DNA of 64,000 nt, taken from the NCBI GenBank assembly GCA_020632695.1, contig JACKFB010000003.1, forward strand, positions 321,061-385,060. The letters run 5' to 3'. Of the stretch, positions 22,874-57,785 are shown in pieces. Numbering within the stretch: the first letter of the stretch is position 1; the number at the start of each line of letters is the position of its first letter. Source of the DNA: Deltaproteobacteria bacterium (GTDB taxonomy: Bacteria > Myxococcota_A > UBA9042 > PHBI01 > JACKFB01). The notes under the pieces were generated by a model that saw only the letters and a program-made list of their open reading frames with translations, had not been told where the DNA came from and searched no databases. A program made the position numbers and the translations under genes.

Positions 22874-24232
22874 CTACTGCTCGCACTCGCAGACGGACAT
22901 CTTGCCCTGCACGGTGGTCCACCACTGGCCCGTCCAGCGGGCCGGCGCGGCGCACACCTTCGGGCACTTCTTCTTCGCGTCGCCCTGGTTCCAGATGGGC
23001 CCCGCCTCGACGGCCTGCTTCACCGGCACCGGCGTCACGCACTCGCAGACCGACATCTTGCCGGCCACCGTCGTCCACCACTGCCCGTTCCACTTCGAGG
23101 GCGCCGTGCAGACCTTCGGGCACTTCTTCTTCGCGTCGCCCTGGTTCCAGATGGGGCCGGCCTTCCGCGCCTCCTTCGTCTCGGCCGGCGCGGGCTGCGG
23201 CGGAGCCTCGACGACCACCGGCGGCGGCTCGGGCTCGGGCTCGGGCGTGACGACGACCACCGGCGGCGGCGCCCCCACCTCGCACTCACACACCGACATC
23301 TTGCCCTGCACGGTGGTCCACCACTGCCCGGTCCAGCGCGCCGGACCGCGGCACACCCTCGGGCACTTCTTCTTGGCGTCGCCCTGGTTCCAGATGGGCC
23401 CGGCTTCGCGCGCCTCCTTGAAGACGACCGGCGTCGCGCACTCGCACACCGACATCTTGCCCTGGACCGTGGTCCACCACTGGCCGGTCCACCGCGACGG
23501 CGCGCTGCACACGCTCGGGCACTTCTTCTGGGCGTCGCCCTGGTTCCAGATGGGGCCCGCCTCGCGCGCCTCCTTCGTCTCCGCCGGGGCCGCCGAGACC
23601 GGAGCGGGCGCGGGCTCCTCGGCCGCCTCGCTGATGCGCCAGAGCTGGTTCCGGTTGCCCGACGCCTTCTTCGGGTACGCGATGATGCGCGCCAGCGGCT
23701 CGGGGCTGCCGCCGTCGATGTCGAGGACGAAGCCGTTGAGCTTGCTCTCGATGAAGAACCAGCCGGGGACCGGCGAGCGCACCCGGCGCCAGAGCTGGTT
23801 GTCGGTGCCCTCCGCCTTCTTCGGGTAGGCGATGATGCCGGTGGCCGGCGCGGGGTTGGCGCCGTCGATGTCGAGGACGAAGCCATTGAGCTTGCTCTCG
23901 ATGAAGAACCAGCCGCGCTGGGGCGCCGGCACCATGCGCCAGAGCTGGTTGTCGGCGCCCTCGGCCTTCTTCGGGTAGGAGATGACGTGCGCGGCCGGCG
24001 CGTTGCTGCCGCCCTCGATGTCCATCACGAAGCCGTTGAGGCGGCTCTCGATGTAGCCGAAGTCGCCGCGATCGCCGTGCGGGGCGCGGCGCGCCTGAGC
24101 CGTGCCCGCCGATGCGGTGACGGCGAGGGCGACGGTCAGCGCGAGACCTCGCAGCCTGAGCGCCGGAGGCCGGGCGCTGCGCGGGTCGGGCGGCGGGGCG
24201 GCGACGGGAAGACGGGGCGGTGTGGTGATCAT
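22874..24232 (-). CDS. secreted lectin-like protein: three ricin-B (QxW) repeats plus four small 4-Cys lectin-like repeats
   Basis: Signal peptide. Three beta-trefoil-type LNGFVLDIDG...AYPKK...DNQLWR repeats. Then four copies of AGPIWNQGDAKKKCP.VC..P.RWTGQWWTTV.GKMSVCEC, resembling the family NCBI names mannan-binding family protein. Confidence 0.7.
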   Translation of the reverse strand: MITTPPRLPVAAPPPDPRSARPPALRLRGLALTVALAVTASAGTAQARRAPHGDRGDFGYIESRLNGFVMDIEGGSNAPAAHVISYPKKAEGADNQLWRMVPAPQRGWFFIESKLNGFVLDIDGANPAPATGIIAYPKKAEGTDNQLWRRVRSPVPGWFFIESKLNGFVLDIDGGSPEPLARIIAYPKKASGNRNQLWRISEAAEEPAPAPVSAAPAETKEAREAGPIWNQGDAQKKCPSVCSAPSRWTGQWWTTVQGKMSVCECATPVVFKEAREAGPIWNQGDAKKKCPRVCRGPARWTGQWWTTVQGKMSVCECEVGAPPPVVVVTPEPEPEPPPVVVEAPPQPAPAETKEARKAGPIWNQGDAKKKCPKVCTAPSKWNGQWWTTVAGKMSVCECVTPVPVKQAVEAGPIWNQGDAKKKCPKVCAAPARWTGQWWTTVQGKMSVCECEQ

Positions 24233-37916: not shown

Positions 37917-39485
37917 TTACGTCCGTCGCCGCCGCGGCGCCAGGAGCGCACCCATGACCAGGCCCAGGGCGGCGCCGCTGGCGTGGCCGAGGAAGCTGAC
38001 CTCGGGGGTGCTGAGGTCGAAGGCGGTGGAGGCGACGAAGAGCAGACCCAGATAGAGGAGCTCGCGCCGCGCGCCCAGGCTGCGGTGGGCGCGCCAGCGG
38101 ATGAACATGATCGACGCGATGGCGCCGAAGAGCGCCATGATGCCGCCCGAGGCGCCGGCGACCGGGTAGGGCGACTCGTTGGCCGGCGTCAGCAGGGTGA
38201 TGAGGGCCATCGAGCCTGGGGCGCAGATGGCGTAGAGCAGCGCCATGCGGGCGCGGCCGAGCACCGACTCGACGAAGCGGCCGAAGATCCAGAGGCCGAA
38301 CATGTTGAGCGTCAGGTGCAGCACGCCGACGTGGAGGAAGGCCGAGGTCACCACGCGCCACCACTCGCCCTCGAGGTAGGCGGCCGGAGCGACCAGGGCG
38401 CCCATGCGCAGGAGGTTGCGGACGTCGGTGGTGCCGCCGGGGATCTCCAGGGCGAAGACGGCCAGGTTCAGGGCGATGAGGGTGGCGGTGACCGCCGGGA
38501 AGGGGCCGCGACCGGGGGCGGCGAGGGTGGTCTGGGCGTCGGGCGGGCCCTCGGCGGCCAGGACGGTGTCGAGCAGGCGCGGCTGTCCGTGGGCGGCCAG
38601 GTCGAAGGTGGGGACCGGCTCGGCCAGGCGGCGTCGAGCCGGGCCGGCGACCAGCGGGTCCTGGCCCAGCGCCAGCGGCACCAGCACGGCCTCAGCGGCC
38701 TGGAGGTCGCCCCGGGCCTGGAGCGCGGTCCCCGTCCAGAAGGCGACGAGGCTGGGGGTGAGCTGGAGGAAGGGGCCTGCCTGGAGCGCGGCGATGGCGT
38801 CGGGCTGGCCGGTGAAGGCGGCATAGACCAGGCGGTTGTTGGCCAGCCAGCCGGGGCCCTGGGCGCGGCCCAGGCGCTCGATGACGCCCTGGTGGACCTC
38901 GGCGAGCCGCGCGGTCTGGCCCAGCTCGCCCAGGGCGCGGACGTAGTTGGAGGCGACCTCCGGCTGCATCAGCAGCTTCTGTCGCTCCGGGGAGGCGTCG
39001 ACCCAGGCGATGAGGTCATGCCAGCGCGTGTCCATGCGCAAGAGCAGCAGCCAGGCCTCCCGCGCGGCGCGGCCGCTGCCCCGGGCCAGGGCCTCGAGGG
39101 CGGCGCGGGCCTCGTCGCGGTGCCCCCGCTCGATGAGCCCCTGGGCGCGCAGCAGCTCCGGCACGGCGGTCCAGCCGTCGAAGGGGTGCAGCACCGCCGC
39201 GACCTGCGCCGCCACCCGGGCCCGGTCGAAGCGGCGTCGCGCGATGAAGCGCGCGGCGGCTCGGTTGGCCAGCGACGGCAGCAACACCATCGGCACGAAC
39301 ACGATGGCCCCGAGCAGCCCCGCGTGCGCCGGCACCACCAGCCAAGCCAGCCCCAACACGACCAACACCAGCCCGTGAGCGAAGAGCCAGCCTGGATAGC
39401 TGCGCCCGTACCGCCGCAGGATCGACACGAAGCCCAGCAGCGACGACGCGCCGACGAACCAGGCGAGAAGGGGTTCCAGCTCCAT
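37917..39485 (-). CDS. rhomboid family intramembrane serine protease with N-terminal helical/TPR-like region
   Basis: C-terminal HLTLNMFGLWIFG and GASGGIMALFGA (GxSG) motifs within six TM helices. Two N-terminal TM helices plus a soluble helical region. Confidence 0.8.
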   Translation of the reverse strand: MELEPLLAWFVGASSLLGFVSILRRYGRSYPGWLFAHGLVLVVLGLAWLVVPAHAGLLGAIVFVPMVLLPSLANRAAARFIARRRFDRARVAAQVAAVLHPFDGWTAVPELLRAQGLIERGHRDEARAALEALARGSGRAAREAWLLLLRMDTRWHDLIAWVDASPERQKLLMQPEVASNYVRALGELGQTARLAEVHQGVIERLGRAQGPGWLANNRLVYAAFTGQPDAIAALQAGPFLQLTPSLVAFWTGTALQARGDLQAAEAVLVPLALGQDPLVAGPARRRLAEPVPTFDLAAHGQPRLLDTVLAAEGPPDAQTTLAAPGRGPFPAVTATLIALNLAVFALEIPGGTTDVRNLLRMGALVAPAAYLEGEWWRVVTSAFLHVGVLHLTLNMFGLWIFGRFVESVLGRARMALLYAICAPGSMALITLLTPANESPYPVAGASGGIMALFGAIASIMFIRWRAHRSLGARRELLYLGLLFVASTAFDLSTPEVSFLGHASGAALGLVMGALLAPRRRRT

Positions 39486-39640
39486 CGCCGCGGGACGCTA
39501 CGTCCCCCCGAGCCGCGCCGCAAGTGTAGCGTCGGTGGCCGGGGCGGCGGCTACGAGCCTCGCTGGCGGCGTCGCTCCCTCGGGTCAGGCCTGCGACGGG
39601 CCTGGGGCCCGACTCGGCCTGCCCTCGCTCACTCCTACCC

Positions 39641-39830
39641 CACGGCGCCCTCGCTCGCCGCTGACGGCGCCTCGGTCAGTGGCGGGGTTGGAGCGTTCGG
39701 CTCGGCCGGGGCCTTCGGCTCGGCCTCGGCTGCGGGGTCGGACTCGGTCTCGGCTTCGGTCTCGGTCTCGGTCTCGGTCTCCGCCTCGGTCCCGGTCTCG
39801 GCCTCGGTCCCGCGGGAGTTCCTGAGCCCC
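39641..39830. repeat. about 190-bp GC-rich repeat element, copy A (ends in (gcctcggtctcg)n)
   Basis: First about 90 bp are near-identical to 40443..40530, then it degenerates into 9-12-bp GC-rich tandem units. Confidence 0.65.
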
Positions 39831-39915
39831 GCACTCTGAACGCACCCAGCGCTTGGAGCCGCGCATCACGTTCCGTACACTCCGCTTGCCAACGCTTGGC
39901 CGTGGGTACTGGACG

Positions 39916-40152
39916 ATGACGACCGCTGCGCAAATCAAGAGTGACTTCACCAAGTTGCCGGTTGGCGAACAGATCGAGCTGCTCTGCGAACTCTGGAACG
40001 ACCTGGCCCGGGAGCCCGGTGCCGTCGCGCTGAGCGATGATCAGAAGCGCGCGTTGGAACGCCGCTACGAACGCCATCTCCAGCATCCGGAGGAGGCCAT
40101 TCCTTGGGAGGAGGTCCGGGACAGCATCCGGAGCAGACGCAGGGAGTCGTGA
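39916..40152 (+). CDS. addiction-module antitoxin (TIGR02574-like putative addiction module component)
   Basis: 78 aa from Met 22 of ORF 39853..40152. LPVGEQIELLCELWNDL motif. Its TGA overlaps the GTG of the downstream toxin. Confidence 0.65.
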   Translation: MTTAAQIKSDFTKLPVGEQIELLCELWNDLAREPGAVALSDDQKRALERRYERHLQHPEEAIPWEEVRDSIRSRRRES

Positions 40153-40442
40153 TCCGCTTCCGACCTGAAGCGCGGTCCGATGCACAGTCGGCGTATGATT
40201 GGTATGAGGACAAGGAGAGCGGGCTCGGTGATCGATTGGTGGACGCCATCGATGCCCTGATGGACCGCGTCGACGCGAACCCCCGCCTCTTTCCAAAGGC
40301 CCATCAAGAGTTTCGGCGCGCAGTACTCTCCCAATTCCTATACTGCGTGTACTTCGTCGTTGAGCCGGCCTGCGTCCTCGTCGTCGGCGTTCTCCACGGT
40401 CGCCAGGACCTGCGTCGACTGTTGGAGCGCCTTCGTCGGTGA
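40149..40442 (+). CDS. type II toxin, ParE/RelE superfamily
   Basis: 97 aa. VIRFRPEARSDAQSAYDWYE...FPKAHQEFRRAVLSQFLYCVYFVVE is ParE-like. GTG start overlapping the antitoxin stop. Confidence 0.7.
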   Translation: MIRFRPEARSDAQSAYDWYEDKESGLGDRLVDAIDALMDRVDANPRLFPKAHQEFRRAVLSQFLYCVYFVVEPACVLVVGVLHGRQDLRRLLERLRR

Positions 40443-40680
40443 GTGCGCCCTCGCTCGCCGCTGCCGGCGCCTCGGACGGGGCGGGTTGGGAGTGTTCGGC
40501 TCGGCCGGGGCCTTCGGCCTGGCCTCGATTGCGGCCCCGGAGGCGGTCTCGGCCCCGGTCTCGGAGGCGGTCTCGGCCTCGGAGGCGGTCTCGGCCTCGG
40601 AGGCGGTCCCGGCCTGGGAGGCGGTCTCGGCTTCGCCTCGGCCCCGGCTCCGGCCTCGGGCCTCGGACGCCCTCTCGGTC
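40443..40680. repeat. about 190-bp GC-rich repeat element, copy B
   Basis: Homologous to copy A, beginning right after the toxin stop. Confidence 0.65.
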
Positions 40681-40749
40681 CCGGCGTCCGTGCTCGCGCC
40701 GAGGGCCTTCCGCTTGACCTTTGCGGTCGGCCTGCCAGATCCTCTGCTC

Positions 40750-41055
40750 ATGAACAGCACTTACGACACTGCCCGACGGCTCGCTCGCTTGCACCGGGTC
40801 GAGGATCCCGACACCCGGCAGGTCTACTTCTTCGACGCCCCCAACGAGGTACGCCTCCTCGAGATCTCCGACGCCGTCGGGTACACGGGAGAGGTCCTGC
40901 CCTTCCGATTCGGCGCGAGGCCCGACGTGGGCATCGACTACCCGTCCGTCGTCATCCTGTTGACTCCACAGGAACTTGATGAGCTGCGCGACGGCACGCT
41001 CTCGCTGCCTGATGCCTGGGGGGACCTCGACGCCTCGCGCTTGCTGGACGAATAG
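40750..41055 (+). CDS. hypothetical 101-aa protein (first gene of uncharacterized two-gene module)
   Basis: Start at Met 131 of ORF 40360..41055. No motif recognised. A 4-nt gap to the next gene suggests an operon. Confidence 0.5.
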   Translation: MNSTYDTARRLARLHRVEDPDTRQVYFFDAPNEVRLLEISDAVGYTGEVLPFRFGARPDVGIDYPSVVILLTPQELDELRDGTLSLPDAWGDLDASRLLDE

Positions 41056-41058
41056 GGG

Positions 41059-41550
41059 ATGCCACGTCACCGCGATTGGGCGGACGCGTACCTGGCTCAG
41101 GCGCGAGCAGACCTCGAAGGCGCGAGGAACCTCACTGGCGCAGTGCCTTCCGTCTTCGCCATGCTCCTGCAGATGGCCTTCGAGAAGATGGCCAAAGCGG
41201 CGCTTCTTCGGTCCGAGGCGGTCCCGCTCGATTGGGTGAGAACCTCCCACAGGGCTGCCTCCCGGATGACGCAGATGATGCGTCGACAGCGTGGCCTGCT
41301 CGGACCGCTTGGCGGGCCCTGGCGTTGGGAGGGGATCCTGCAGGTCATCAACGCTCTCGAGGGAGCCCATCCGCAGGTGGCTCGCGCGGGACCTCATCTC
41401 GAGTACCCGTGGGAGGGTCTCGATGGCCGCATCCTCTGGCCCGAAGAGCACCTCCAGATAGCCGGCAAGCTCGGCCAGTCCAGACAAGCGGCAGATGTCC
41501 TGAAGTTCGCCACGTTGGTCGAGCGGAACTTCGACGAGATCTTCCCCTGA
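41059..41550 (+). CDS. HEPN-like helical protein (tentative)
   Basis: 163 aa. N-terminal helix pattern [10 protein letters not shown]...[19 protein letters not shown] resembles HEPN. The R-x(n)-H motif is not canonical. Confidence 0.45.
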
Positions 41551-41575
41551 GATTCGCGGGAGCGGGACCGCCGTC

Positions 41576-41700
41576 GCTGATGACGCCGTTGAAGCCGGGC
41601 TGCTCGTCGCGGACACGCTCGACCTCGCGCAGGTTCGACGCCTCCGAGCGGTTCTGGATGATGTGTCCCTCGTGCACCCGGGCGCCGACCATCGCGTCCA
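41576..41700 (-). pseudogene. 120-bp internal fragment of a ygiQ-like radical SAM gene
   Basis: About 90% identical to 51221..51340 inside the intact ygiQ, in the same orientation. The translated fragment reads [34 protein letters not shown]. Confidence 0.6.
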
Positions 41701-41818
41701 AGAATGGGCCCGGCGGGCGTTGTGCGGCCGCCCGGGGCCCGCTAATATCGCCCGACCGTGACACCCCTTGCCCACCCTCCCGGCGTCAACAACGCATGAG
41801 GACCATTCGAGGAGATTC

Positions 41819-42649
41819 ATGATGACGACCACTGTCGAGAGCTTCGTAGCCCTGTTCGTCACCCCCACGCGCCGCCGCATCTTCGCGTGCACCGAGTGCG
41901 CGAAGGCGGCCGAGGCGCGCGGCCTCAACGACCTGGCAGAGCGCGCGATGGCCGCGGTGCGGGCCGATGAGGCCGTCCTGGAGCTGGAGCGGGCCCGCCG
42001 CGCGCCGCCACGTGCGGCCCAGCACGCGGAGACCGCGCCGGAGCGGGACGCCCGCATCGACCACGCCCTGACCGCCATCGACCAGACGCTGGCCCACATC
42101 GCGCGCGTCTTCGGTGAGGAGAGCGAGCGCGGCCAGAGGGCCACCGCGCTGCGAGGGAAGATCTTCCCCCTGGGGGTCACCGGCGTCACCGCGCTGCCCT
42201 ATGTCGAGCAGTACGGCGAGGTGAAGAGCCTCCTCGCCAAGCTCCAGGGCGAGTGGGCCGCCGATGTCGATGCCACCATGATCGCGCCCTTCATCGCGCA
42301 GCTCGCCGAGCTGAACCCGGGCTACGGCGCCATCCTGAACCCCGCCCCGGACGCCCGCCCCACCGCCGACGAGGTCCGCGCCGAGAACGCCAAGGGCCAA
42401 CGCCGCCTGCTGGCGCTGGTCGCGACCATCCTCGGCCGCTTCCCCGACGACACCGACACCGACATCGCCGCCCGCGACGCCCTCCTCGGCCCGATCGCCC
42501 GCCAGAACGACGCCCTGCGCGAGCTGCGGCGCGCTCGCGGCGGCGGCGGCGACCCCGCCACCCTTGACCTGCCCGATCCCGACGCGGCGCCGGTCGCCGA
42601 CTCCATGACGGCGAGCGCCGACGCGACGAGCGAGGCCCCTGCCCTCTGA
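41819..42649 (+). CDS. hypothetical 276-aa helical protein
   Basis: ATG preceded by GAGGAG. High GC. No motif recognised. Acidic low-complexity C-terminus. Confidence 0.55.
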   Translation: MMTTTVESFVALFVTPTRRRIFACTECAKAAEARGLNDLAERAMAAVRADEAVLELERARRAPPRAAQHAETAPERDARIDHALTAIDQTLAHIARVFGEESERGQRATALRGKIFPLGVTGVTALPYVEQYGEVKSLLAKLQGEWAADVDATMIAPFIAQLAELNPGYGAILNPAPDARPTADEVRAENAKGQRRLLALVATILGRFPDDTDTDIAARDALLGPIARQNDALRELRRARGGGGDPATLDLPDPDAAPVADSMTASADATSEAPAL

Positions 42650-43167
42650 CGCGCCCCTCCCCGGACCGGTCGAGCACGCCCTGCACGCCCCAGGATTCGC
42701 TCGACCGGACCGGACCACCGCCGCCCGGATCTAACGCAGGCCCCCGCAACCGATGACGACCGCCCTCCGCAACGCCATCCAGGCCAGGCGACGACCACCC
42801 CACCGCCCCGCCTGGTTCCTCCGACCCCCGACGACGACCAGCCCACCGCCCGGGCCAGCCCCTCCGAGGCCCCCGCTGGACCAGTCAACTCCCCCGCCGA
42901 GCGTCTCTGAGGCGCCCCGAGCAGCAGTCGACTGCGCCGCCCAGGGCCTCCGAGACACTCACGAGACCACCGACCCGTCGCGAGCCCCCGCGGATGCAGC
43001 GCCGCCTGAGCTGCGCGATGCATCCCCACTGTGGGATTCCTGCACCAATGGCCGGACGGGCCACGCTCTTCGAGCTATGCTGACGCCGCGCGCGCCGTCC
43101 GGCACGTCCGCACACCGGGACTCCTGCGGGCGGCATCCCCTCGCGACCGCTTCCTCAGAGGACATCG

Positions 43168-46100
43168 ATGACTTCCGAACGCCACCTGGAAGAGTCGTTC
43201 ATCGCCAAGCTCGTCAGCCTCAAGTACGAGTATTGTGAAGACATCGATGATCGGGACAGCCTCGAAACCAACTTCCGCCAGAAGTTCCAAGCGCTCAACC
43301 AGGTCAAGCTGACCGACGGCGAGTTCAAGCGACTCCTCGACGAGATCGTCACGCCGGACGTCTATGAAGCCGCGCGCGCCCTGCGAAATCGGGAGGCGTT
43401 CATCCGCGATGACGGCACCCCGCTCAACTACACGCTTGTCAACATCAAGGACTGGTGCAAGAACAGCTTCCAGGTCATCAACCAGCCGAGCATCAACACG
43501 GACAACAGCCGTCACCGCTACGATGTCCTGCTCCTGATCAATGGCGTCCCTGTGGTCCAGGTCGAGCTCAAGACGCTCGGAATCAGCCCCCGGCGAGCGA
43601 TGGAGCAGATCGTCGCGTACAAGAACGACCCCGGGAACGGCTACTCGAAGACGCTGCTCTGCTTCATCCAGCTCTTCATCGTCAGCAACCGCACGGACAC
43701 TTGGTACTTCGCGAACAACAACGCGCGGCATTTCGCCTTCGACGCCGACGAGCGCTTCCTTCCCATCTACCAGTTCGCCACCGACGACAACACGAAGGTC
43801 ACCCACCTCGATGACTTCGCCGAGGCCTTCCTGGCCAAGTGCACGCTCGGGCACATGATCAGCAAGTACATGGTTCTCATCGCCAGCGAGCAGAAGCTGA
43901 TGATGATGCGGCCGTATCAGATCTACGCCGTGAAGGCCATCGTCGACTCCATCGACCAGGACTGCGGCAACGGTTACATCTGGCATACGACCGGCTCCGG
44001 CAAGACGCTGACCTCCTTCAAGGCCTCGACGCTCCTCAAGACCAACGAGCGCATCCACAAGTGTCTCTTCGTCGTGGACCGCAAGGACCTCGACCGCCAG
44101 ACCCGCGAGGAGTTCAACCGCTTCCAAGAGGGTTGCGTCGAAGAAAACACCAACACCGCGACGCTCGTCGACCGCCTTCTGTCCGATGACTACGCCGACA
44201 AGGTCATCGTCACCACCATCCAGAAGCTCGGCCTGGCCCTCGACCAGAACAGCAAGCAGAGCAAGCAGCACGTCGCTCGGGGCCGGAACACCTACAAGCA
44301 GCGGCTGGAGTCCCTGCGCGACAAGCGCATGGTGTTCATCTTCGACGAGTGCCACCGCTCCCAGTTCGGCGAGAACCACAAGGCCATCAAGGAGTTCTTC
44401 CCCAACTCCCAGCTCTTCGGCTTCACCGGCACGCCGATCTTCAAGGACAACGCCACCGTGAAGCAGGTGGAAGGCGACAAGGCCACGCTGCGTACCACGC
44501 AGGACCTGTTCCAGAAGCAGCTCCACGCCTACACGATCACCCACGCCATCGAGGACCGCAACGTCCTCCGCTTCCACGTCGACTACTACAAGCCCAAGGA
44601 CGCCGCGGTCCCCCCGCCGGGCGAGACGTTGACGAAGAAGGCCGTCGCCCAGGCCATCCTCGACAAGCACGATGCGGCGACAGGAGCCCGGCGCTTCAAC
44701 GCGCTGCTCGCCACCGCTTCCATCAACGACGCCATCGAGTACCACGGCGTCTTCAAGAAGCTGCAAGCCGAGCGCCTGGCGGCAGACCCCGGCTTCGTGC
44801 CCCTGAAGATCGCAGCGGTGTTCTCCCCCCCGGCGGCGGGCAACAGGGACGTCCAGCAGCTCCAAGAGGACCTGCCCCAAGAGAAGGAGGACAACCGCCA
44901 GGATCCCGAGGGAAAGAAGGCCGCGCTCGAGGCCATCATCACCGACTACAACCAGCGGTACGGCACCAACCACGACATCAACAATTTCGACCTCTACTAC
45001 CAGGACGTCCAGCAGCGCATCAAGTACCAGCAGTTCCCCAACCGCGACCTGCCCCAGAAGGGCGCCGAGAAGATCGACATCACCATCGTGGTCGACATGC
45101 TGCTCACCGGCTTCGACGCCCGGTTCCTGAACACGCTCTACGTGGACAAGAATCTCAAGCACCACGGCCTGATCCAGGCCTTCTCGCGCACCAACCGTGT
45201 CCTCAACGCGACGAAGCCCTACGGCCACATCCTCGACTTCCGCCAGCAGCAGAAGAGCGTCGACGCCGCGATCACGCTCTTCTCCGGCGCACAGGCCGAC
45301 CGGGCCCGCGAGATCTGGCTGGTCGACAAGGCCCCCGTCGTCATCGAGAATCTCGAACAGGCCGTCGCCGACCTCGGCGCGTTCATGAAGTCCCAAGGCC
45401 TCGAAGCCAGACCAGAACAGGTGAACAACCTGAAGGGCGACGCCGCCCGAGCGCAGTTCATCAAGCGATTTCGGGAGGTCCAGCGCCTCCAGACGCAGCT
45501 CGACCAGTACACCGACCTCACCGAGGAGCAGCGGGAGCAGATCGAGCAGGCCCTTCCCAAAGACGATCTCCGTGCCTTCCGCGGCGTCTACCTCGAGACG
45601 GCCAAGCGCCTGAGGGAGCAGCAAGCCGTCGCGGGCACTGGCGAAGCGCCGGTCGACCCCGAGCTCGACCAGCTCGACTTCGAGTTCATCCTCTTCGCCT
45701 CCGCGGACATCGACTACGACTACATCATGAAGCTGATCGCGAAGTACTCGGGCCTGGACCCGGAGCGAAGCGAGAAGACCCGCCAGCAGCTCATCGGCAT
45801 GATCCAGTCCGACGCCAAGTTCCTGGACGAGCGCGAGTCGATCACCGAGTACGTCCGCTCGCTTCCGGTGGGCGAGGCGCTCGACGAGTCCGCCGTCCAC
45901 TCCGGGTACGAGAAGTTCAAGGCCGCGCGGCAGGCCAAGGAGCTCGAACGCCTCGCCGAGGCCCATGGCCTGACGAAGGAGTCCCTCTCGGCCTTCGTCG
46001 ACACCATCCTCCAGCGCATGGTGTTCGACGGCGAGCTGCTCACCGACCTGATGGCGCCCCTCGATCTGGGCTGGCGCGAACGCCGCGAGCGAGAGCTCGC

Positions 46101-46194
46101 CCTTATGACGCAGCTCGTCCCGCTCCTGAACAAGAGGGCCCACGGCCGGGAGATCTCAGGCCTGAATGCGTACGAGCATGGGGGAGGCCGGTGA
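43168..46194 (+). CDS. hsdR: type I restriction enzyme R subunit
   Basis: 1008 aa. DEAD/DEAH helicase motifs (TGSGKT, DECHRSQ), an N-terminal restriction domain and the C-terminal HsdR helical domain. GC markedly lower than flanking DNA. Confidence 0.95.
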   Translation: MTSERHLEESFIAKLVSLKYEYCEDIDDRDSLETNFRQKFQALNQVKLTDGEFKRLLDEIVTPDVYEAARALRNREAFIRDDGTPLNYTLVNIKDWCKNSFQVINQPSINTDNSRHRYDVLLLINGVPVVQVELKTLGISPRRAMEQIVAYKNDPGNGYSKTLLCFIQLFIVSNRTDTWYFANNNARHFAFDADERFLPIYQFATDDNTKVTHLDDFAEAFLAKCTLGHMISKYMVLIASEQKLMMMRPYQIYAVKAIVDSIDQDCGNGYIWHTTGSGKTLTSFKASTLLKTNERIHKCLFVVDRKDLDRQTREEFNRFQEGCVEENTNTATLVDRLLSDDYADKVIVTTIQKLGLALDQNSKQSKQHVARGRNTYKQRLESLRDKRMVFIFDECHRSQFGENHKAIKEFFPNSQLFGFTGTPIFKDNATVKQVEGDKATLRTTQDLFQKQLHAYTITHAIEDRNVLRFHVDYYKPKDAAVPPPGETLTKKAVAQAILDKHDAATGARRFNALLATASINDAIEYHGVFKKLQAERLAADPGFVPLKIAAVFSPPAAGNRDVQQLQEDLPQEKEDNRQDPEGKKAALEAIITDYNQRYGTNHDINNFDLYYQDVQQRIKYQQFPNRDLPQKGAEKIDITIVVDMLLTGFDARFLNTLYVDKNLKHHGLIQAFSRTNRVLNATKPYGHILDFRQQQKSVDAAITLFSGAQADRAREIWLVDKAPVVIENLEQAVADLGAFMKSQGLEARPEQVNNLKGDAARAQFIKRFREVQRLQTQLDQYTDLTEEQREQIEQALPKDDLRAFRGVYLETAKRLREQQAVAGTGEAPVDPELDQLDFEFILFASADIDYDYIMKLIAKYSGLDPERSEKTRQQLIGMIQSDAKFLDERESITEYVRSLPVGEALDESAVHSGYEKFKAARQAKELERLAEAHGLTKESLSAFVDTILQRMVFDGELLTDLMAPLDLGWRERRERELALMTQLVPLLNKRAHGREISGLNAYEHGGGR

Positions 46195-47453
46195 TGGCCG
46201 GATCGCCCCCTTCAACCGTACCAAAGCTTCGGTTCCCAGAGTTCCGGGAAGCGCCCGGGTGGGCACGCGATCAAATCGGCAATGTTGCAAGTATTACCAA
46301 AGGAAGGGGTGTCTCAAAGTCGGATGTGACGGAGGCGGGTGCAACTCCCTGCATCAGGTATGCAGAACTGTATACTTGCTATGGCGAGGTGATTCGTCAC
46401 GTGGTATCTCGCACGAACATCTCGCCCGATGAGTTGGTATTCAGCGAACCCGAGGATGTGATTGTGCCCGCGTCAGGAGAGACGCGAGCAGACATCGCGA
46501 GGGCTGCCTGCGTTGTCGACGGAGGCGTCGCACTAGGCAGTGATCTGAATGTCCTGCGGTCGCAGCTTAGCGGTCGGTTTTTCAGCTACGTGCTGAACAG
46601 TCCGCTTCGCCATACGATCGCACTACTCGCACAGGGCGATACGGTTGCTCACCTGTATCCCGCTCAGCTATCGCGTGTTTCGCTGGCTTACCCATCGCGG
46701 CGAGAGCAGCAGAAGATCGCCGACTGCCTCGGCTCGCTGGACGACCTGATTGCCGCCGAGGGCCGGAAGCTGGACACTCTGCGGCAGCACAAGCAAGGGC
46801 TGATGCAGGATCTCTTTCCTCGCATCGATGAGAGCCAGCCCAGAATGCGATTCCCTGAATATGCTCGTGCTCCTGCGTGGAAACCACGGAAGATCTCAGA
46901 TCTTCTCAAGAAGGCGTCCATCCAGGTCATCGTGGAGCCGGATACCAAGTATCAAGAAATCGGCGTGAGATCCCACGGAAATGGCGTGTTTCACAAGACG
47001 CCTGCGCTCGGGTCTCGTCTCGGTGCGAAGCGCGTCTTCGAGGTTGTCGAACAAGCCCTGGTCTTCAATACCGTCTTCGCCTGGGAACGCGCAGTCGCCA
47101 CGACTTCACGCGCGGAAGCAGGCATGATCGCTTCGCACCGATTCCCCATGTATCTCCCTAAGTTCGGGACGTGTGATGTTCGCTTCATGAAGTACGCATT
47201 CCTTACTCAGCGCGGTGCGCAGCTCCTGCACGTGGCATCCCCCGGGGGCGCGGGGCGGAACCGCACCCTCGGTCAAGCAGAACTCGGGGCGCTCGTGATG
47301 ACCGTGCCCAGTCTGGACGAGCAAGTCGCGATTGCGAGTATGATAGACGCAGCCTCGAATCTCATCGAGCTCCAAGCCGCCAATTGGGAACTGATAAAGC
47401 AGTATAAGGCCGGTCTTCTGCAACAGCTCTTCCCATCGCCCGGAGGCCACTGA
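46194..47453 (+). CDS. hsdS: type I restriction-modification specificity subunit
   Basis: 419 aa. Two target-recognition domains separated by conserved coiled regions. ATG overlaps the hsdR stop (TGATG). Confidence 0.85.
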   Translation: MAGSPPSTVPKLRFPEFREAPGWARDQIGNVASITKGRGVSKSDVTEAGATPCIRYAELYTCYGEVIRHVVSRTNISPDELVFSEPEDVIVPASGETRADIARAACVVDGGVALGSDLNVLRSQLSGRFFSYVLNSPLRHTIALLAQGDTVAHLYPAQLSRVSLAYPSRREQQKIADCLGSLDDLIAAEGRKLDTLRQHKQGLMQDLFPRIDESQPRMRFPEYARAPAWKPRKISDLLKKASIQVIVEPDTKYQEIGVRSHGNGVFHKTPALGSRLGAKRVFEVVEQALVFNTVFAWERAVATTSRAEAGMIASHRFPMYLPKFGTCDVRFMKYAFLTQRGAQLLHVASPGGAGRNRTLGQAELGALVMTVPSLDEQVAIASMIDAASNLIELQAANWELIKQYKAGLLQQLFPSPGGH

Positions 47454-47456
47454 ACG

Positions 47457-48635
47457 ATGCGGGACGCGCCAAAGATCCATCTGTACAGAAGCCTGACCAC
47501 GCTCGCAACCAGGCTGCGCAGTGATCTTAGAGACTTCCACAGCGTGCTCCTCTATGCCTATAATAGAACCGGGAAGACACGCCTTTCGATGGAGTTCAAG
47601 AAGCTAGGGAAGCGGAAAGGCAATGGCACCGCTGACACACTATACTTCAATGCATATACCGAGGACCTCTTCATCTGGGAGAATGACCTCGATTCCGACT
47701 GCGACCGCCATCTCCAACTCAATTCCAAGTCGGCGTTTCTGAAGTTACTCGCCGAGTTGGCCCTTGACCTGAGTATTGCTGAATATTTGTCGCGCTACGC
47801 CGATTTCGAATTTGACATCGACTACACCAGTTGGAAGGTGACGTTTCGGAAGGGCGATGAAGAACAGATCAAGATATCTCGAGGCGAGCAGAACATCTTC
47901 ATCTGGTGCATCTTCATGGCGATATGCGAGCAGGTTATCGCGGGACACTTGTCTTATCAATGGGTCAAGTATCTCTACATCGATGATCCCATTTCGTCGC
48001 TGGACGACAACAACGCTATCGCAGTTGCATGCGACCTCGCGGGCTTGCTTCGGAAGGCGGCCGCGAGGCGTGATATGGCGGGTAGTCCTGACCCGCTGCG
48101 AACGGTGATTTCCTCGCATCACGCGCTGTTTTTCAACGTGATGTGTAACGAGTTGAGCAGGAGACCCGAAGGACAGAACAAGGTAGATCACAAGCGATAC
48201 TTCTTGCAGCAGCCCACCGGCGAACGTGTCTACACGCTTCGCGCGACGGACGACACACCCTACTTCCACCACATCGCCACGCTTGCCGAATTGGACCGTT
48301 GCGCGAAGCGGACACGCTCTATACGTACCACTTCAATGCGCTGCGAAGTGTGCTGGAGAAGACGGCCAGCTTCTTCGGCCAGGAACTTCTCCGCCTGCAT
48401 TTTGCTTGCATAGATGAAGACGGGGGTTGAAGGATGAGGCTCTGTCTGCAATCTCGCACTGAACCTGCTGAGTCACGGCAGCTACGCCATCATGAGCCCA
48501 GTCGAGATGGTAGAGGACAACAAGAAGCTGTTTCGGCAAATCCTGGACGATTTCTTGAGCAAGTTTGAGTTCTTGCTTCCAGAGATCCTTCCATTGCCCA
48601 AGGCGAAGCGCCGATGCGAAATGACTGAACACTGA
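47457..48635 (+). pseudogene. ABC-type (AAA_15/AAA_21-like) ATPase gene, interrupted
   Basis: Walker A AYNRTGKT, ABC signature ISRGEQ, Walker B/D-loop LYIDDPISSLD, H-loop SSHH. After about 48.28 kb the plausible reading continues in the +1 frame and returns to the original frame at about 48.44 kb (ending ...KAKRRCEMTEH*). Confidence 0.5.
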
Positions 48636-50234
48636 CCAGCAGAAGCTCGGCAAGACGCTCTGGGCCATCGCCGATCAGCTCCGCGGGGCGATGAACGCGG
48701 ACGACTTTCGCGACTACATGCTCGCGTTCCTGTTCCTCCGCTACCTGTCGGACAACTACGAGCAGGCCGCGAAGAAGGAACTCGGGCGTGACTACCCGGA
48801 TCCAAAGGCGATCGGCAACGGCGGGCGGTCCGCTCTGTCCGTGTGGTACGGACAGAACCGGACGATGTGACGGCATTCGAGAAGCAGATGCGCCTCAAGG
48901 CGCACTATGTGATCCTCCCCAAGTACCTGTGGGCCAGCGTTTCCCACATGGCCCGCACTCAGGACGAGCAGCTTCTGAACACCCTCCAGGCCGGCTTCAA
49001 GTACATCGAGAACGAGTCGTTCGAGAGCACCTTCTCGGGCCTGTTCTCGGAGATCAACCTCGGCTCGGACAAGCTCGGCAAGAACTACTCCGCCCGCAAT
49101 ACGAAGCTCTGCACGATCATCGGCGAGATCGCGAAGGGGCTCGCCGATTTCTCCACCGACAGCGACACGCTGGGAGACGCCTACGAGTACCTGATCGGCC
49201 AGTTCGCCGCAGGCTCGGGCAAGAAGGCGGGCGAGTTCTACACGCCGCAGCGGATCTCGGACATCCTCTCCGGCATCGTCACGCTCGACAGCCAGGAGCC
49301 GGGGGCAGGGACGCGCGAGCGGCTCGGCAGCGTGATGGACTTCGCCTGCGGGTCGGGCTCGTTGCTGCTGAACGTCCGAAAGCGCATGGGGGCGCACGGC
49401 ATCGGGAGGATCTTCGGGCAGGAGAAGAACATCACGACCTACAATCTGGCGCGGATGAACATGCTGCTACATGGGGTGAAGGACTCAGAGTTCGAGATCT
49501 ACCATGGCGACACGCTGACCAACGACTGGGACATGCTCCGCGAGACCAACCCGGCGAAGAAGCCGTACTTCGACGCCGTGGTCGCCAATCCGCCGTTCAG
49601 CTACCGCTGGGACCCGAGTGACGCCTCGGCCGAGGATGTGCGCTTCAAGAACTACGGGCTGGCGCCGAAGTCTGCCGCGGACTTCGCGTTCTTGCTCCAC
49701 GGCTTCCACTACCTCAAAGACGACGGCGTGATGGCCATCATCCTGCCGCATGGGGTGCTGTTCCGCGGCGGTGCTGAGGCGAAGATACGCGCGAAGCTGC
49801 TCGAAGATGGCAACATCGACACCATCATCGGGCTGCCCGCGAACCTGTTCTACTCGACGGGGATCCCGGTCTGCATCCTGGTGCTCAAGAAGTGCAAGAA
49901 GCCCGATGACGTGTTGTTCATCAACGCCGTCGAGCATTTCGACAAGGGCAAGCGGCAGAACGTCCTCAGCGACGAGCACATCGCGAAGATCGTCAGAACC
50001 TACAAGCATCGCAAGGAGGAGACGCGGTACTCGCGGCGGGTGGAGATGGCCGAGATCCAGGCGAACGAGTACAACCTGAACATCTCGCGCTATGTGAGCA
50101 CGGCCAAGCCGGAGGTCGAGATCGACTTGGCGGCGACGCAAGAGGAGCTGGTGCGGATCGAGGACGAGATCCGCAAGGCGAAGGATCTGCACAACGGCTT
50201 CCTCGAGCAGCTCGGTCTGAAACCTCTGCCCTGA
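48621..50234 (+). pseudogene. hsdM: type I R-M N6-adenine DNA methyltransferase subunit, frameshifted
   Basis: ATG 48621 gives MTEH then a stop. The HsdM N-domain (DQQKLGKTLWAIADQLRG...FLFLRYLSD) is read in the +1 frame 48625..48870. The catalytic body with the ANPPF motif is in the original frame from 48843. Confidence 0.75.
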
Positions 50235-50300: not shown

Positions 50301-50346
50301 GTCTCGCCCCGGCCCCGGCCCCGGCCTCGGCCCCGGCCTCGGCGCG
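50301..50346. repeat. (gccccg)n-type simple repeat
   Basis: Hexamer tandem tract between the convergent ends of hsdM and ygiQ. Confidence 0.6.
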
Positions 50347-52563
<2,217 letters not shown>

Positions 52564-52586
52564 GGCGACGCTGTTACCACCGCGCG

Positions 52587-55500
52587 TCAGCCGAGTCGAT
52601 GAAGGCGGCGCCCCGCCGCCAGCTCGTGTCGCTCGCGTCGCCGCGTCCAGGCCCAGCCGAGGAGCAGCGCGGCGAGCCACGCGCCGCCGTCGCCCGTGGT
52701 GCCGGTGCAGCCTCCGCCTCCGCTGCCTCCGTCGCCTCCGCCGCCCGCGCGGTCGGTCTCCGGCTCGGCGCCGACGTCGTCCGGCGACGCGTCGCCGCTG
52801 GCGTCGGGGGGCGCGCCCGCGTCTTCCCGGTCCGCCACGTCGTCGAGCCCCGCGTCGTCCGGCGGCAGTGCCACGCAGAGGCCGGCCTCCGATCGTGTGC
52901 CGGCGGGGCAGCAACCGTCCACGTCAGCGCAGGCGCCGGGCTCGCACTCGGTCCGCTGCAGCTCCTCGCCGCAGCCGCTGGTCTCCACCCACACGTCGCC
53001 GGCGCAGGCTGCGGTCGACGGCAGCTCGCCGCAGTTGCAGGTCCCCGAGTCGGGCAGGCAGCGCCGTGCGCCGACAGCCCCGGACTTGCAGGAGTAGCCG
53101 CTCGGGCAGGCGTCGGCCAGGCCGCAGGGGACCACGCAGAACGCGCCCGTCGGCATCTGGAGGCAGGTGCCGACGAGGCACTCGGTCGTGTCGCACGGAG
53201 CGCAGGCGACTGGCTCGCAGACGCCGTCCGCGCAGGCGGAGCCGAGCTCGCAGGTCAGGGGCGTGCCTGCGCACTCTCCGGCGGAGCAGGTGTCGCCTTG
53301 GGTGCACGGGTCGCCGTCGTCGCAGCTCGCGGTGTTGTCCTGGTGGACGCAGCCGGAGACCGGGTCGCAGGCGTCGGTGGTGCAGGGGTCGCCGTCGTCG
53401 CAGGCGACCGACGTGTGGGTGCAGCCGGAGGCGGGGTCGCAGGCGTCGGCGGTGCAGGCGTCGCCGTCGTCGCAGGCGATGGCGGCGTGGGTGCAGCCGG
53501 AGGCGGGGTCGCAGGCGTCGGTGGTGCAGGCGTCGGCGTCGTCGCAGGCGATGGCGGTGTGGGTGCAGCCGGAGGCGGGGTCGCAGGCGTCGAAGGTGCA
53601 GGCGTCGGCGTCGCTGCAGGGGACCGGGGCGTGGGTGCAGCCGGTCGCCGGGGCGCAGGCGTCGGTGGTGCAGGGGTTGGCGTCGTCACAAGCGACGCTG
53701 GTGTGGGTACACCCGGACGCCGGGGTGCAGGCATCCGAGGTGCAGGCGTTGGTGTCGTCGCAGTCGCGCGCCGCGTGCGTGCAGCCGAGCTTCGGGTCGC
53801 AGGCGTCGGTGGTGCAGGGGTCCGAGTCGTCGCAGGTGACGGCCGAGTGCCCGCAGCCGGTCTTGGGGTCGCAGGTGTCCTGGGTGCAGGCGTCGCCGTC
53901 GTTGCAGGTGGTGGCGGAGTGCACGCAGCCCGAGGCCGGGTCGCAGGCGTCGGTCGTGCATACGTTCGCGTCGTCGCAGTTCACGGGCGCGCTCACGCAG
54001 CCGCTCTTCGGCTTGCAGGTGTTCGCGGTGCAGGCGTCGGCGTCGTCGCAGTCGACGGCGGCGTGCGCGCAGCCGGAGGCCGGGTCGCAGGTGTCCGCGG
54101 TGCAGGCGTTGGCGTCGTCGCAGCTCAGGGGCACGGACACGCACCCGGCGACGGGGTCGCAGGTGTCTGCGGTGCAGGCGTTCCCGTCATCGCAGCCGAT
54201 GGCCGTGTGGACGCACCCGGTCGCGTGGTCGCAGGTGTCGACGGTGCACACGTTGGCGTCGTCGCAGTCGAGGGACGGGTGGGCGCAGCCGGTGGCGGGG
54301 TCGCAGGTGTCTGCGGTGCAGGCGTCCGCGTCGTCGCAGTCCACCAGATCGGTGACGCATCCCGCCGCGGGGTCACAGGTCTCGGTGGTGCAGACGTCCA
54401 GATCCTCGCAGGACACGAGCTGGTGGGTGCAGCCCTCATCCGCGTCGCAGGCGTCGGTGGTGCAGGCGTCACCGTCGTCGCAGTCCACGGGGTCGTGGGT
54501 GCAGCCGGTGGCGGGGTCGCAGCCGTCGGCGGTGCAGGCGTCGCCGTCGTCGCACGGGTTGGGCGTGAAGAGGCAGGCGCCCGAGCTGTCGCAGCCATCA
54601 TCGGTGCACGGGTCACCGTCATCGCAGGCCTGGGCCACGTGGGTGCAGCCCGTCGCCGGGTCGCAGGCGTCGACGGTGCACGCGAGCGCGTCGTCGCAGT
54701 CGACCGCCGTGGTGGCGCAGCCGGTGAGCGGGTCGCAGATGTCGGTGGTGCAAGCGTTCGCGTCGTCGCAGTCGACCAGGTCGGTGACACAGCCCAGCGC
54801 CGGGTCGCAGGTGTCGGTGGTGCAGGCGTCGTCGTCGTCGCAGTCGACGCTGGCGTGCCCGCACCCGGTGGCGGAGTCGCAGGAGTCGACGGTGCAGGCG
54901 TTCGCGTCGTCACAGTCGACGGCGGCGTGCCCGCAGCCGGCGAGCGGGTCGCAGGTGTCGGTGGTGCAGGCGTCGCCGTCGTCGCAGCCGACGCTGGCGT
55001 GGCCACAGCCGGTGGCGGGGTCACAGGTGTCGTTGGTGCAGGCGTCCGCGTCGTCGCAGTCGACGCTGGTGTGCTCGCAGCCGGCGAGCGGGTCGCAGGT
55101 GTCGTTGGTGCAGGCGTCGTCGTCGTCGCAGCCGACGCTGGCGTGGCCACAGCCGGTGGCGGAGTCGCAAGTGTCGTTGGTGCAGGCGTCCGCGTCGTCG
55201 CAGTCGATGGCGGCGTGCCCGCAGCCGGTGGCGGAGTCGCAAGTGTCGTTGGTGCAGGCGTCCGCGTCGTCGCAGTCGACGGCGGCGTGCTCGCAGCCGG
55301 CGGCGGAGTCGCAAGTGTCGTCGGTGCAGGCGTCCGCGTCGTCGCAGTCGACCAGGTCGGTGACGCACCCTGCCGCCGGGTTGCAAGTCTCGTTGGTGCA
55401 GGCGTCCGCGTCGTCGCAGTCGATGGCGGCGTGCTCGCAGCCGGTGGCGGAGTTGCAGGAGTCGGCGGTGCAGGCGTCCGCGTCGTCGCAGTCGACGTTC

Positions 55501-57785
55501 GCGTGCTCGCAGCCGGTCACCGGGTCGCAGGTGTCGACGGTGCAGGCATCGCCGTCGTCGCAGGAGTGGGGCGCGAAGGTGCAGTCGCCCGAGCTGTCGC
55601 AGCCGTCGTCGGTGCACGGGTTGCCATCGTCGCACTGCTGCGCCACATGGGTGCAGCCAGTCCCCGGGTCGCACGCGTCGACCGTGCACGGGAGCGCATC
55701 GTCGCAGTCGATCCCGGCGTGCGCGCAGCCGGTGCCGGGCTCGCAGGTGTCTGCGGTGCAGGCGTCGGCGTCGTCGCAGTCGACCGCGGCGTTGGCGCAG
55801 CCTGTGGCGGGGTCGCAGGTGTCCGCGGTGCAGGCGTCGGCGTCGTCGCAGTCGACGGCGGTGTTCACGCAGCCCGACGCCGGGTTGCAGCTGTCGGTGG
55901 TGCAGGCGTCGGCGTCGTCGCAGTCGGTCCCCGCGTGGGCGCAGCCGGTGGTCGAGTCGCAGGTGTCTGCGGTGCATGCGTCCGCGTCGTCACAGTCGAT
56001 GGTGGCGTTGACGCATCCCGACGCCGGATCGCAGCTGTCGGTCGTGCATGCGTCGGCGTCGTCGCAGTCGACGGTGCGGCGTGGCCGCAGCCGGTGGTCG
56101 AGTCGCAGGTGTCGTTGGTGCAGGCGTCCGCGTCGTCGCAGGTCGCAGGTGTCGTTGGTGCAGGCGTCGGCGTCGTCGCAGTCGACGGCGGCGTGGGCGC
56201 AGCCGGTGGTCGAGTCGCAGGTGTCGTTGGTGCAGGCGTCCGCGTCGTCGCAGTCGACGGCGGCGTTGACGCATCCCGACGCCGGATCGCAGCTGTCGGT
56301 CGTGCATGCGTCGGCGTCGTCGCAGTCGACGGTGGCGTGGCCGCAGCCGGTGGTCGAGTCGCAGGTGTCCGCGGTACAGGCGTCCGCGTCGTCGCACTCG
56401 ACGGCATCGTTCACGCATCCCGAAGCGGAGTCGCAGCTGTCGGAGGTGCAGGCGTCGGCGTCATCACAGTCGACCGCGGTGTGGCCGCATCCGGTGGTCG
56501 AGTCGCAGCTATCGGTGGTGCAGGCGTCAGCGTCGTCGCAGTCGACGGCATCGTTGACGCATCCCGAAGCCGGGTCGCAGCTGTCGGAGGTGCAGGCGTC
56601 GACGTCATCACAGTCGACGGCGGCGTGGCCGCATCCGGTCGTCGGGTCGCAGCTATCGGTGGTGCAGGCGTCGGCGTCGTCGCAGTCGACGGCGGCGTGC
56701 TCGCAGCCGGTGGTCGGGTCGCAGCTATCGGTGGTGCAAGCGTCCGCGTCGTCGCAGTCGACGGCGGCGTGCTCGCAGCCGGTCACCGGGTCGCAGGTGT
56801 CGACGGTGCAAGCATCGCCGTCGTCGCAGGAGTGAGGCTCGAAAGCGCAATCGCCCGAGCTGTCGCAGCCGTCGTCGGTACACGGGTTGCCGTCGTCGCA
56901 CTGCTGAGCCACATGGGTGCAGCCCGTCCCCGGATCGCACGCGTCGACCGTGCACGGGAGCGCATCGTCGCAGTCGATCCCGGCGTGCGCGCACCCGGTG
57001 ACGGGATCGCAGGTGTCTGCGGTGCAAGCGTCCGAGTCGTCGCAGTCGACCGCGGCGTTGGCGCAGCCTGTGGCGGGGTCGCAGGTGTCCGCGGTGCAGG
57101 CGTCGGCGTCGTCACAGTCGACGGCGGCGTTCACGCATCCCGACGCCGGGTTGCAACTGTCGGTGGTGCAGGCGTCGGCGTCGTCGCAGCTCACCGCGGC
57201 GTTGGCGCAGCCCGTGGTGGGGTCGCAGGTGTCTGCGGTGCAGGCGTCGGCGTCGTCACAGTCGAGGGCGGCGTGCTCGCATCCCGAGGCAGAGTCGCAG
57301 CCATCGGTGGTGCAGGCGTCGGCGTCGTCGCAGTCGACCGCGGCGTGCCCGCAGCCGGTTGTCGGGTCGCAGGTGTCGGTGGTGCAGGCGTTGGCGTCGC
57401 CGCAGTCGATCGCGGCGTTGGCGCAGCCGGTAGTGGAGTCGCAGGTGTCTGCGGTGCAGGCATCGGCGTCGTCGCAATCGACGCGCGCGTGGGCGCAGCC
57501 GGTGTGGGGTCGCAGGTGTCTGTGGTGCAGGCGTCGGCGTCGTCGCAGTCGACTGCCGTGTTGACGCACCCCGAGGCGGGGTCGCAGCTGTCGGTGGTGC
57601 AGGCGTCTGCGTCGTCGCAGCTCACCGCCTCGTTGGCGCAGCCTGTGGTGGGGTCGCAGGTGTCTGCGGTGCAGGCGTCGGCGTCGTCGCAGTCGACTGC
57701 CGTGTTGACGCATCCCGATGCCGCGTTGCAGCTGTCGGTGGTGCATGCGTCGGCGTCGTCGCAATCGACGCTCGCGTGGGCGCAC
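52587..57785 (-). CDS. C-terminal portion of giant secreted protein: tandem 24-aa Cys-rich repeats plus MYXO-CTERM-like sorting signal
   Basis: In-frame [19 protein letters not shown] units throughout. Ends with a Cys/Gly-rich stretch, a hydrophobic helix and an Arg cluster ([33 protein letters not shown]). Joined to the upstream portion by a frameshift near 57.49 kb. Confidence 0.75.

Follow-up and report, generated by a model that had tools for sequence, protein, structure and literature searches.

We find that the ParE/RelE toxin-antitoxin (TA) pair in this DNA lies between two direct repeats, which probably arose when non-coding spacer DNA of the host, located upstream of a rhomboid-family protease gene, was duplicated at this one locus around a foreign TA module. 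The window, by which we mean the whole 64-kb stretch that was analysed, comes from an uncultured myxobacterium and has a GC content of 71.6%, and the closest matches of its proteins are MAG records labelled Deltaproteobacteria or Myxococcota. The layout would be host spacer, foreign TA module of ~608 bp and host spacer again, with each spacer copy made up of a unique stretch of 75–76 bp (the core) and then a fast-evolving (CGGNNN)n hexamer microsatellite (the array). The features of the locus are collected in Table 1. Protein accessions in the source record run consecutively from MCB9727859 (rhomboid) to MCB9727863 (a shorter form of ORF163), and thus the depositor placed no CDS in either spacer or repeat.

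Table 1. Coordinates of the repeats, genes and spacers at the TA locus and of the genes further along the putative island (positions in the window).
Feature	Position	Strand	Evidence or remark
Rhomboid-family protease gene	37917..39485	-	PF01694, E 6e-30; identical to MCB9727859.1; conserved left flank of the variable region
Spacer, 430 bp, rhomboid gene to antitoxin gene	39486..39915		
Spacer X, rhomboid start codon to core A	39486..39644		78% GC, without coding signal
Lineage-specific segment relative to L007, the closest syntenic genome	39503..41707		blastn synteny blocks stop at 39502 and restart at 41708
Core A, unique part of the direct repeat	39645..39720	+	
Array A, (CGGNNN)n hexamer array, period 6/12/18	39721..39812	+	TRF rows 39697-39812; CGG-phase hexamer run
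Upstream part (probable promoter) of the imported TA module	39836..39915	+	L059 homology from 39836
Antitoxin, 78 aa, Unstab_antitox / addiction module component	39916..40152	+	PF09720, E 4.4e-12; = MCB9727860.1
ParE/RelE-family toxin, 97 aa, GTG start	40149..40442	+	PF05016, E 4.7e-8; = MCB9727861.1
Spacer, 307 bp, toxin gene to ORF101	40443..40749		
Core B, second core copy	40445..40519	+	
Array B, (CGGNNN)n, 18-nt unit CGGCCTCGGAGGCGGTCT	40520..40640	+	TRF 40532-40635; CGG-phase hexamer run
Spacer Z, array B to ORF101	40641..40749		
ORF101, first gene of a second imported two-gene module	40750..41055	+	= MCB9727862.1; 65% GC
ORF163, ~165-aa family, HEPN domain-containing per some sources	41059..41550	+	
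HsdR	43168..46194		type I R-M system
HsdS	about 46200..47453		type I R-M system
AAA_13-like gene	47457..48413		within the type I R-M system
HsdM	48843..50234		type I R-M system
Radical-SAM (YgiQ-like) gene	50350..52914	-	right border of the island

The direct repeat is real and lies far beyond chance. The best local alignment, 39645–39812 against 40445–40611, covers 168 columns with one 1-nt gap and is 81.5% identical (137/168), in agreement with the earlier note, which had described two direct GC-rich copies bracketing the TA pair. That note had also described a near-identical core of about 90 bp; a common core does exist, but it measures 75–76 bp and is ~91% identical, with seven differences that include one indel (blastn 90.7% over 75 nt, E ~1e-19). 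Exact core halves occur in the window only at 39645–39675 and 40445–40475 and at 39695–39719 and 40494–40518, where dinucleotide shuffles lead one to expect 0 matches, and the longest exact tracts common to both copies are 19 and 25 bp. The tandem part of each copy consists of hexamers that carry CGG in a fixed phase, with periods of 6, 12 and 18 (TRF), rather than the (ggtctcggc)-like units of period 9 that had been proposed. Two bases separate core B from the toxin stop codon (TGA, 40440–40442); it does not start, as had been claimed, at the first base after that codon. Spacers X and Z, the cores and the arrays all have a GC content of 75–81%, compared to the 71.6% of the window.

The cores and the arrays do not carry the same weight. 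Copies A and B have diverged at ~9% of core positions and ~26% of array positions (~74% array identity in register), and the much greater divergence of the arrays would be explained by their rapid turnover. Because a 6-nt periodicity is common to both arrays, their homology is secure only to about 39742 in copy A and 40541 in copy B; past the first ~20 nt after the core, in-register identity is weak evidence of homology, as the register is partly forced.

The two genes between the repeats form an intact TA pair, and the profile matches confirm its assignment to the type II ParE/RelE family, as had been read from the sequence at the outset. The antitoxin matches PF09720 with 46.3 bits (cut-off 23.3) and the toxin matches PF05016 with 33.9 bits (cut-off 23) over profile positions 1–88 of 89. 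The genes are co-oriented with the antitoxin first, and the antitoxin stop and the toxin start overlap in GTGA (40149–40152). In overlapping, antitoxin-first gene order, in full-length Pfam matches above the gathering score and in having its own upstream region, the pair is like other type II modules that combine ParE/RelE with PF09720, and the genes themselves, which are known here from their sequence, are not unusual.

Comparison with other copies suggests where the module begins and ends. The nearest relatives of the toxin, at 82–87% amino-acid identity, are on short metagenomic contigs, and the module itself recurs at 84–89% nucleotide identity in unrelated contexts. One contig, L059, aligns at 88.8% nucleotide identity and only to window positions 39836–40443, and a second, L058, aligns at 83.9% and only to 39872–40443; the flanks of both are unrelated to the window. 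These alignment limits indicate that the common unit consists of ~80 bp of upstream sequence and the two genes, up to the toxin stop. In the window this unit would span ~608 bp (39836–40443), with limits that lie 24 bp inside the array A end and 2 bp before core B. Its GC content is 62.7%, compared to 71.6% for the window. Together these observations support the view of the TA pair as a discrete module of foreign composition that moves horizontally. Within the upstream part, a candidate promoter (TTGGAG-17 nt-TACACT) can be picked out by eye within 39836..39915, which a consensus scan did not flag. Neither core nor array is present on L059 or L058, and the repeats are likewise absent beside the more distant TA copies (L060–L067, 62% amino-acid identity). 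Since the repeats are missing beside these other copies, they do not travel with the module.

We also compared the site with its counterparts in related genomes. Between the two collinear blocks L007 (GCA_041389525.1) has three unrelated genes, where the window has two spacers, the TA pair and ORF101/ORF163. The neighbours of the rhomboid gene are different again in the L001–L006 group and in L073. The comparisons therefore support a hotspot of gene-content variation between conserved flanks. Of the earlier suggestion of a mobile cassette or recombination hotspot, these parts thus hold: a TA module that is discrete, foreign and apparently mobile, as judged from L059 and L058, and a site at which gene content varies. 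The part that gave the repeats a role in the movement does not, as they are not in the moving unit, they show no attC or terminal-inverted-repeat signature and no multicopy family was detected.

Relatives of the window give an indication of what the repeats are. In the six contigs L001–L006 the rhomboid protein is the same throughout and has 74% identity to that of the window. On the rhomboid strand in these contigs, a (CCGNNN)n array with an 18-nt unit, CCGATTCCGAGGCCGACT, fills the gap to the divergent neighbour gene, and read on the same strand the arrays of the window have a CCGNNN structure like it. Between fixed anchors the array measures 238, 261, 381, 394, 394 and 395 bp in the six contigs. 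Because its length varies even though the rhomboid protein is identical, we take it to be a hypervariable VNTR; it sits in the promoter region (for example, L003 9574–9961) and includes 1-nt frame changes. No array was found upstream of the rhomboid gene in L007 or L073. The arrays at the same position in L001–L006 thus indicate that in part of the clade the array is a feature of this place in the chromosome, and that the repeat is host spacer DNA. The term VNTR or microsatellite applies to the arrays of the window through their head-to-tail units, and the copy-number polymorphism is that measured in the orthologous array of L001–L006. Intergenic VNTRs or microsatellite arrays of this kind are familiar from the MIRU-VNTR loci of mycobacteria. 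The present arrays are similar to these in being intergenic tandem arrays with a copy number that is polymorphic in very close relatives (238–395 bp in L001–L006). They differ in their degenerate CGGNNN hexamer with an 18-nt super-unit, in their setting in ~72% GC myxobacterial DNA, and in that they are found at this locus and as six hexamers at 50310–50345, with no dispersed family.

In the reading that we favour, a host spacer segment of ~100–170 bp would have been duplicated during or after insertion of the TA module. This could have happened through a template switch or a staggered break (a 'duplication-insertion'), or through Campbell-type integration, by one crossover, of a circular intermediate bearing a spacer copy. 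Both Campbell-type single crossover and template-switch repair leave a host segment duplicated on both sides of the inserted DNA. The locus is like such products in its H-cargo-H layout, with a host-type H, a foreign cargo and repeat boundaries that abut the cargo; it is unlike them in that the event is inferred, with no empty site or circular intermediate seen, and in that the copies have diverged by 9–26%. The core divergence of ~9% suggests either that the event is old, or at least not recent, or that the second copy was imported from a relative. An argument against the duplication is its length, since ~170 bp is far longer than ordinary target-site duplications. The repeats would have no dedicated function. 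Exact tracts of 19 and 25 bp are a poor substrate for recombination and could permit at most a rare RecA-dependent loss of the TA pair.

The note's reading called for a search for further copies of the core, and the result counts against it. Pattern searches with up to three mismatches, blastn-short and an nhmmer --max search with a profile of the two cores found no third core, not even a degenerate one, in the 64-kb window, which belongs to a source contig of 433 kb, and none of the related loci compared contains the core. In 185,579 GTDB species genomes a 20-mer scan found 50 single hits, which are spread over unrelated phyla and are chance seeds with no extended match (20–36 bp at ≥90% identity; two others align less well, at 82–86% over up to 45 bp). 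Both core halves had 0 hits in JGI metagenomes, and scans of IMG/VR returned two seed hits only. The GTDB, JGI and IMG/VR scans used exact 20–26-mers, which copies with a mismatch in the seed escape, and the source genome is not among the GTDB set. In a plasmid collection the only similarity was of low complexity, between array B and the linker regions of Streptomyces ParB, and a phage collection gave no match to the repeats. Across the window, the related loci and the three databases there are thus two copies only, both at this locus, which fits a single-locus duplication, the outcome that the note itself had named as refuting its proposal. Interspersed intergenic repeats of the REP, BIME or BOX type have many dispersed copies per genome, and the 64 kb here have two, side by side at this locus. 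The note had also proposed a comparison with relatives for presence or absence of the pair; none of the relatives examined has an allele of this exact locus that lacks the TA pair and carries one spacer copy. In the literature on TA modules flanked by direct repeats we found nothing pertinent.

If the core and array were instead a genome-specific interspersed repeat or a recombination site bounding cassettes, the TA pair, and perhaps ORF101/ORF163, would be cassettes of an integron-like or repeat-mediated array. The closeness of the inner repeat edges to the limits of the TA module (2–24 bp) is what such an arrangement would give; copy B also precedes the second imported two-gene module, and the locus looks like a variable defence island whose far end carries a short (CGGNNN)6 array, the third one here. 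Nonetheless we regard this explanation as unlikely, because no third core follows ORF163 or is found elsewhere in the window, the database scans for core copies were empty, and the repeat is missing beside the TA module elsewhere. Furthermore, a search of both copies on both strands for attC sites (GTTRRRY / RYYYAAC) was negative, and the best scores of end-to-end inverted alignments, 7–10, lie at the level of random sequence (mean 10.5, sd 2.4), with no flanking inverted-repeat pair reported. No integrase or transposase family was found among the window ORFs scanned between 36.9 and 52.9 kb, and the window has no tRNA gene. We accordingly rejected two specific candidates, an integron attC site (an empty motif search, and only two repeats) and IS or MITE ends (terminal inverted repeat scores at background). 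The best-known precedent for cassettes of this type is in the sedentary chromosomal superintegrons of Vibrio, where near-identical attC/VCR repeats bound each cassette, including TA cassettes. The present locus resembles these in having a TA pair between similar direct repeats of ~100 bp, beside a small gene module and in a variable region. In contrast to them it has neither attC core sites nor a consistent imperfect palindrome, it has two repeats only and no integrase among the ORFs scanned from 36.9 to 52.9 kb, and its repeats do not accompany the TA module elsewhere. A related proposal is that the rhomboid-upstream spacer, core and microsatellite together, is an integrase-independent capture site for small foreign defence or TA modules, and this we consider quite improbable. 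Replication stalling or breakage at the unstable hexamer array would induce a switch of template by which modules are copied in. With every capture the spacer would be duplicated, and an island of modules parted by spacer copies would result, with the shorter array at 50310–50345 marking its far end.

The remaining alternatives concern what the repeats might encode or be, and all are less probable again. As had been pointed out before, long ORFs run over the repeats on the opposite strand, for example, 39676..42189 (-) with 837 aa, and a 137-aa minus-strand ORF with an ATG start runs across copy B. The repeats could on this basis be remnants of a small minus-strand gene whose 3' part was duplicated by the insertion. 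Its product would be basic at the N-terminus and Pro/Ala-rich at the C-terminus, with an acidic ET/EA low-complexity array between them; of the two copies, B would still have the start codon (ATG, 40751) and A would represent a 3' fragment that stops at a TAG (39636–39638). Array periods that are multiples of 3, a high GC3 in the minus frame and the 137-aa ORF itself are in line with such a gene, as are similar ORFs of 115–167 aa that are called upstream of the rhomboid gene in L001, L003 and L005, and similar arrays that encode linkers at window 14733–14910 and in Streptomyces ParB genes. However, the 137-aa ORF had 0 hits in a HMMER scan of 1.84 billion representative proteins, the repeat-spanning ORFs matched no Pfam or NCBIfam family, and no exact records were found for five candidates among them. 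Codon scores are at or below zero in the cores and in spacer Z, copy A has no start codon, and in the minus-strand frame copies A and B differ by a frameshift inside the core. The ORFs of the relatives are similar to it in the repeats only, with frameshifts in L002 and L006 in spite of an identical rhomboid protein, the source record calls no CDS here, and the proposed ATG would overlap that of the divergent ORF101. We think such a gene very unlikely, and a gene hidden across the repeats on either strand was rejected for want of families, homologues, codon support and an annotated CDS.

Assembly is an equally doubtful source of the duplication: the DNA comes from a MAG, microsatellite arrays are hard to assemble, and array length varies among related contigs, so that strain variants might have been joined or looped. 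A simple graph loop is contradicted by the divergence of ~9% in the core and ~26% in the array, and the TA pair and both flanks are intact and continuous. Finally, the core could function in cis, for example as a terminator hairpin, a regulatory RNA or a protein-binding site, and could have been duplicated because each unit needs one. Core A can indeed form a 12-bp hairpin (CGCCGCTGAC...GTCAGTGGCG), and core B starts 2 nt past the toxin stop. On the plus strand, however, the copies fold no better than shuffles (z-scores −0.57 and −0.16) and on the minus strand the result is inconsistent (−2.11 and +0.50), the changes within the stem do not compensate each other, and upstream of copy A there is no plus-strand gene to terminate. 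There are 0 T-tract terminator-like sites and 0 Rfam matches at E ≤ 1. We regard this as the most improbable of these explanations; folding like that of shuffles, the non-compensatory stem differences and the lack of a T-tract or an Rfam match led us to reject a structured RNA or terminator. A locus-specific duplication of host spacer around the TA module is thus the reading we retain.

Downstream of copy B, ORF101 and ORF163 make up a second import. Among 117 homologues of ORF163, one has PF05168 and one is named HEPN by UniRef, and ORF163 has no match of its own in Pfam, NCBIfam or PADLOC. A partner gene of 100–102 aa is always upstream of the ORF163 homologues, and one pair of this type lies between portal and terminase genes on a prophage-like contig (L069). 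The constant partner and the contexts elsewhere indicate that ORF101/ORF163 is a second imported two-gene module (65% GC). The pair (40750–41550; L068–L072) is a candidate uncharacterised TA or defence pair that occurs in many contexts, and searches of Pfam, NCBIfam, PADLOC and PDB sequences gave no match to the module itself. In the source record, ORF163 is annotated with 91 aa only.

The 293-aa gene further downstream is 88% identical to its L007 counterpart and has a weak DUF6261 match, and beyond it lies a type I R-M system. From the rhomboid to the radical-SAM gene, the region 39836–50234 looks like a defence/addiction island made up of the TA pair, the HEPN-like pair, the 293-aa gene and the type I R-M genes. 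In L007, a tyrosine integrase gene (PF00589) and a Uma2 endonuclease gene are found just past the conserved 276/293-aa gene (L007 3157–5528), which suggests that the same chromosomal neighbourhood is an integration area in that genome also. At the far island edge, between the ends of HsdM and the radical-SAM gene, is the (CGGNNN)6 array of GCCCCGGCCTCG units (50310–50345); it has the same strand phase as arrays A and B, which may be coincidence, and no core-like sequence is beside it.

Several other tandem arrays occur in the window. A plus-strand ORF at 14601–14920, with a signal-peptide- or lipoprotein-like start, contains CCGGGGCCGAGA-type repeats that encode a long (GAET)n linker, so that the hexamer arrays have a coding counterpart there. 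At 53343–58870 there is a very large tandem array, with periods of 72 and 216 nt and 25–39 copies, whose minus strand probably codes for a Cys/Asp-rich repeat protein. Three arrays of 150–156-nt repeats at 22882–24053, each with 2–3 copies and 83–89% matches, probably all lie within one repeat-domain gene.

As it stands, nothing here challenges current understanding, and the locus is an ordinary one with one small curiosity. It offers a worked example of a chromosomal TA pair as a minimal transferred module, with sharp limits from the promoter region to the toxin stop, and the module appears to have landed in a gene-content hotspot next to other defence genes. Minor curiosities are the unusually long duplication (~170 bp) and the hypervariable array that two lineages have upstream of the rhomboid gene; their recurrence at other loci would hint that small modules can be acquired through repeat instability.
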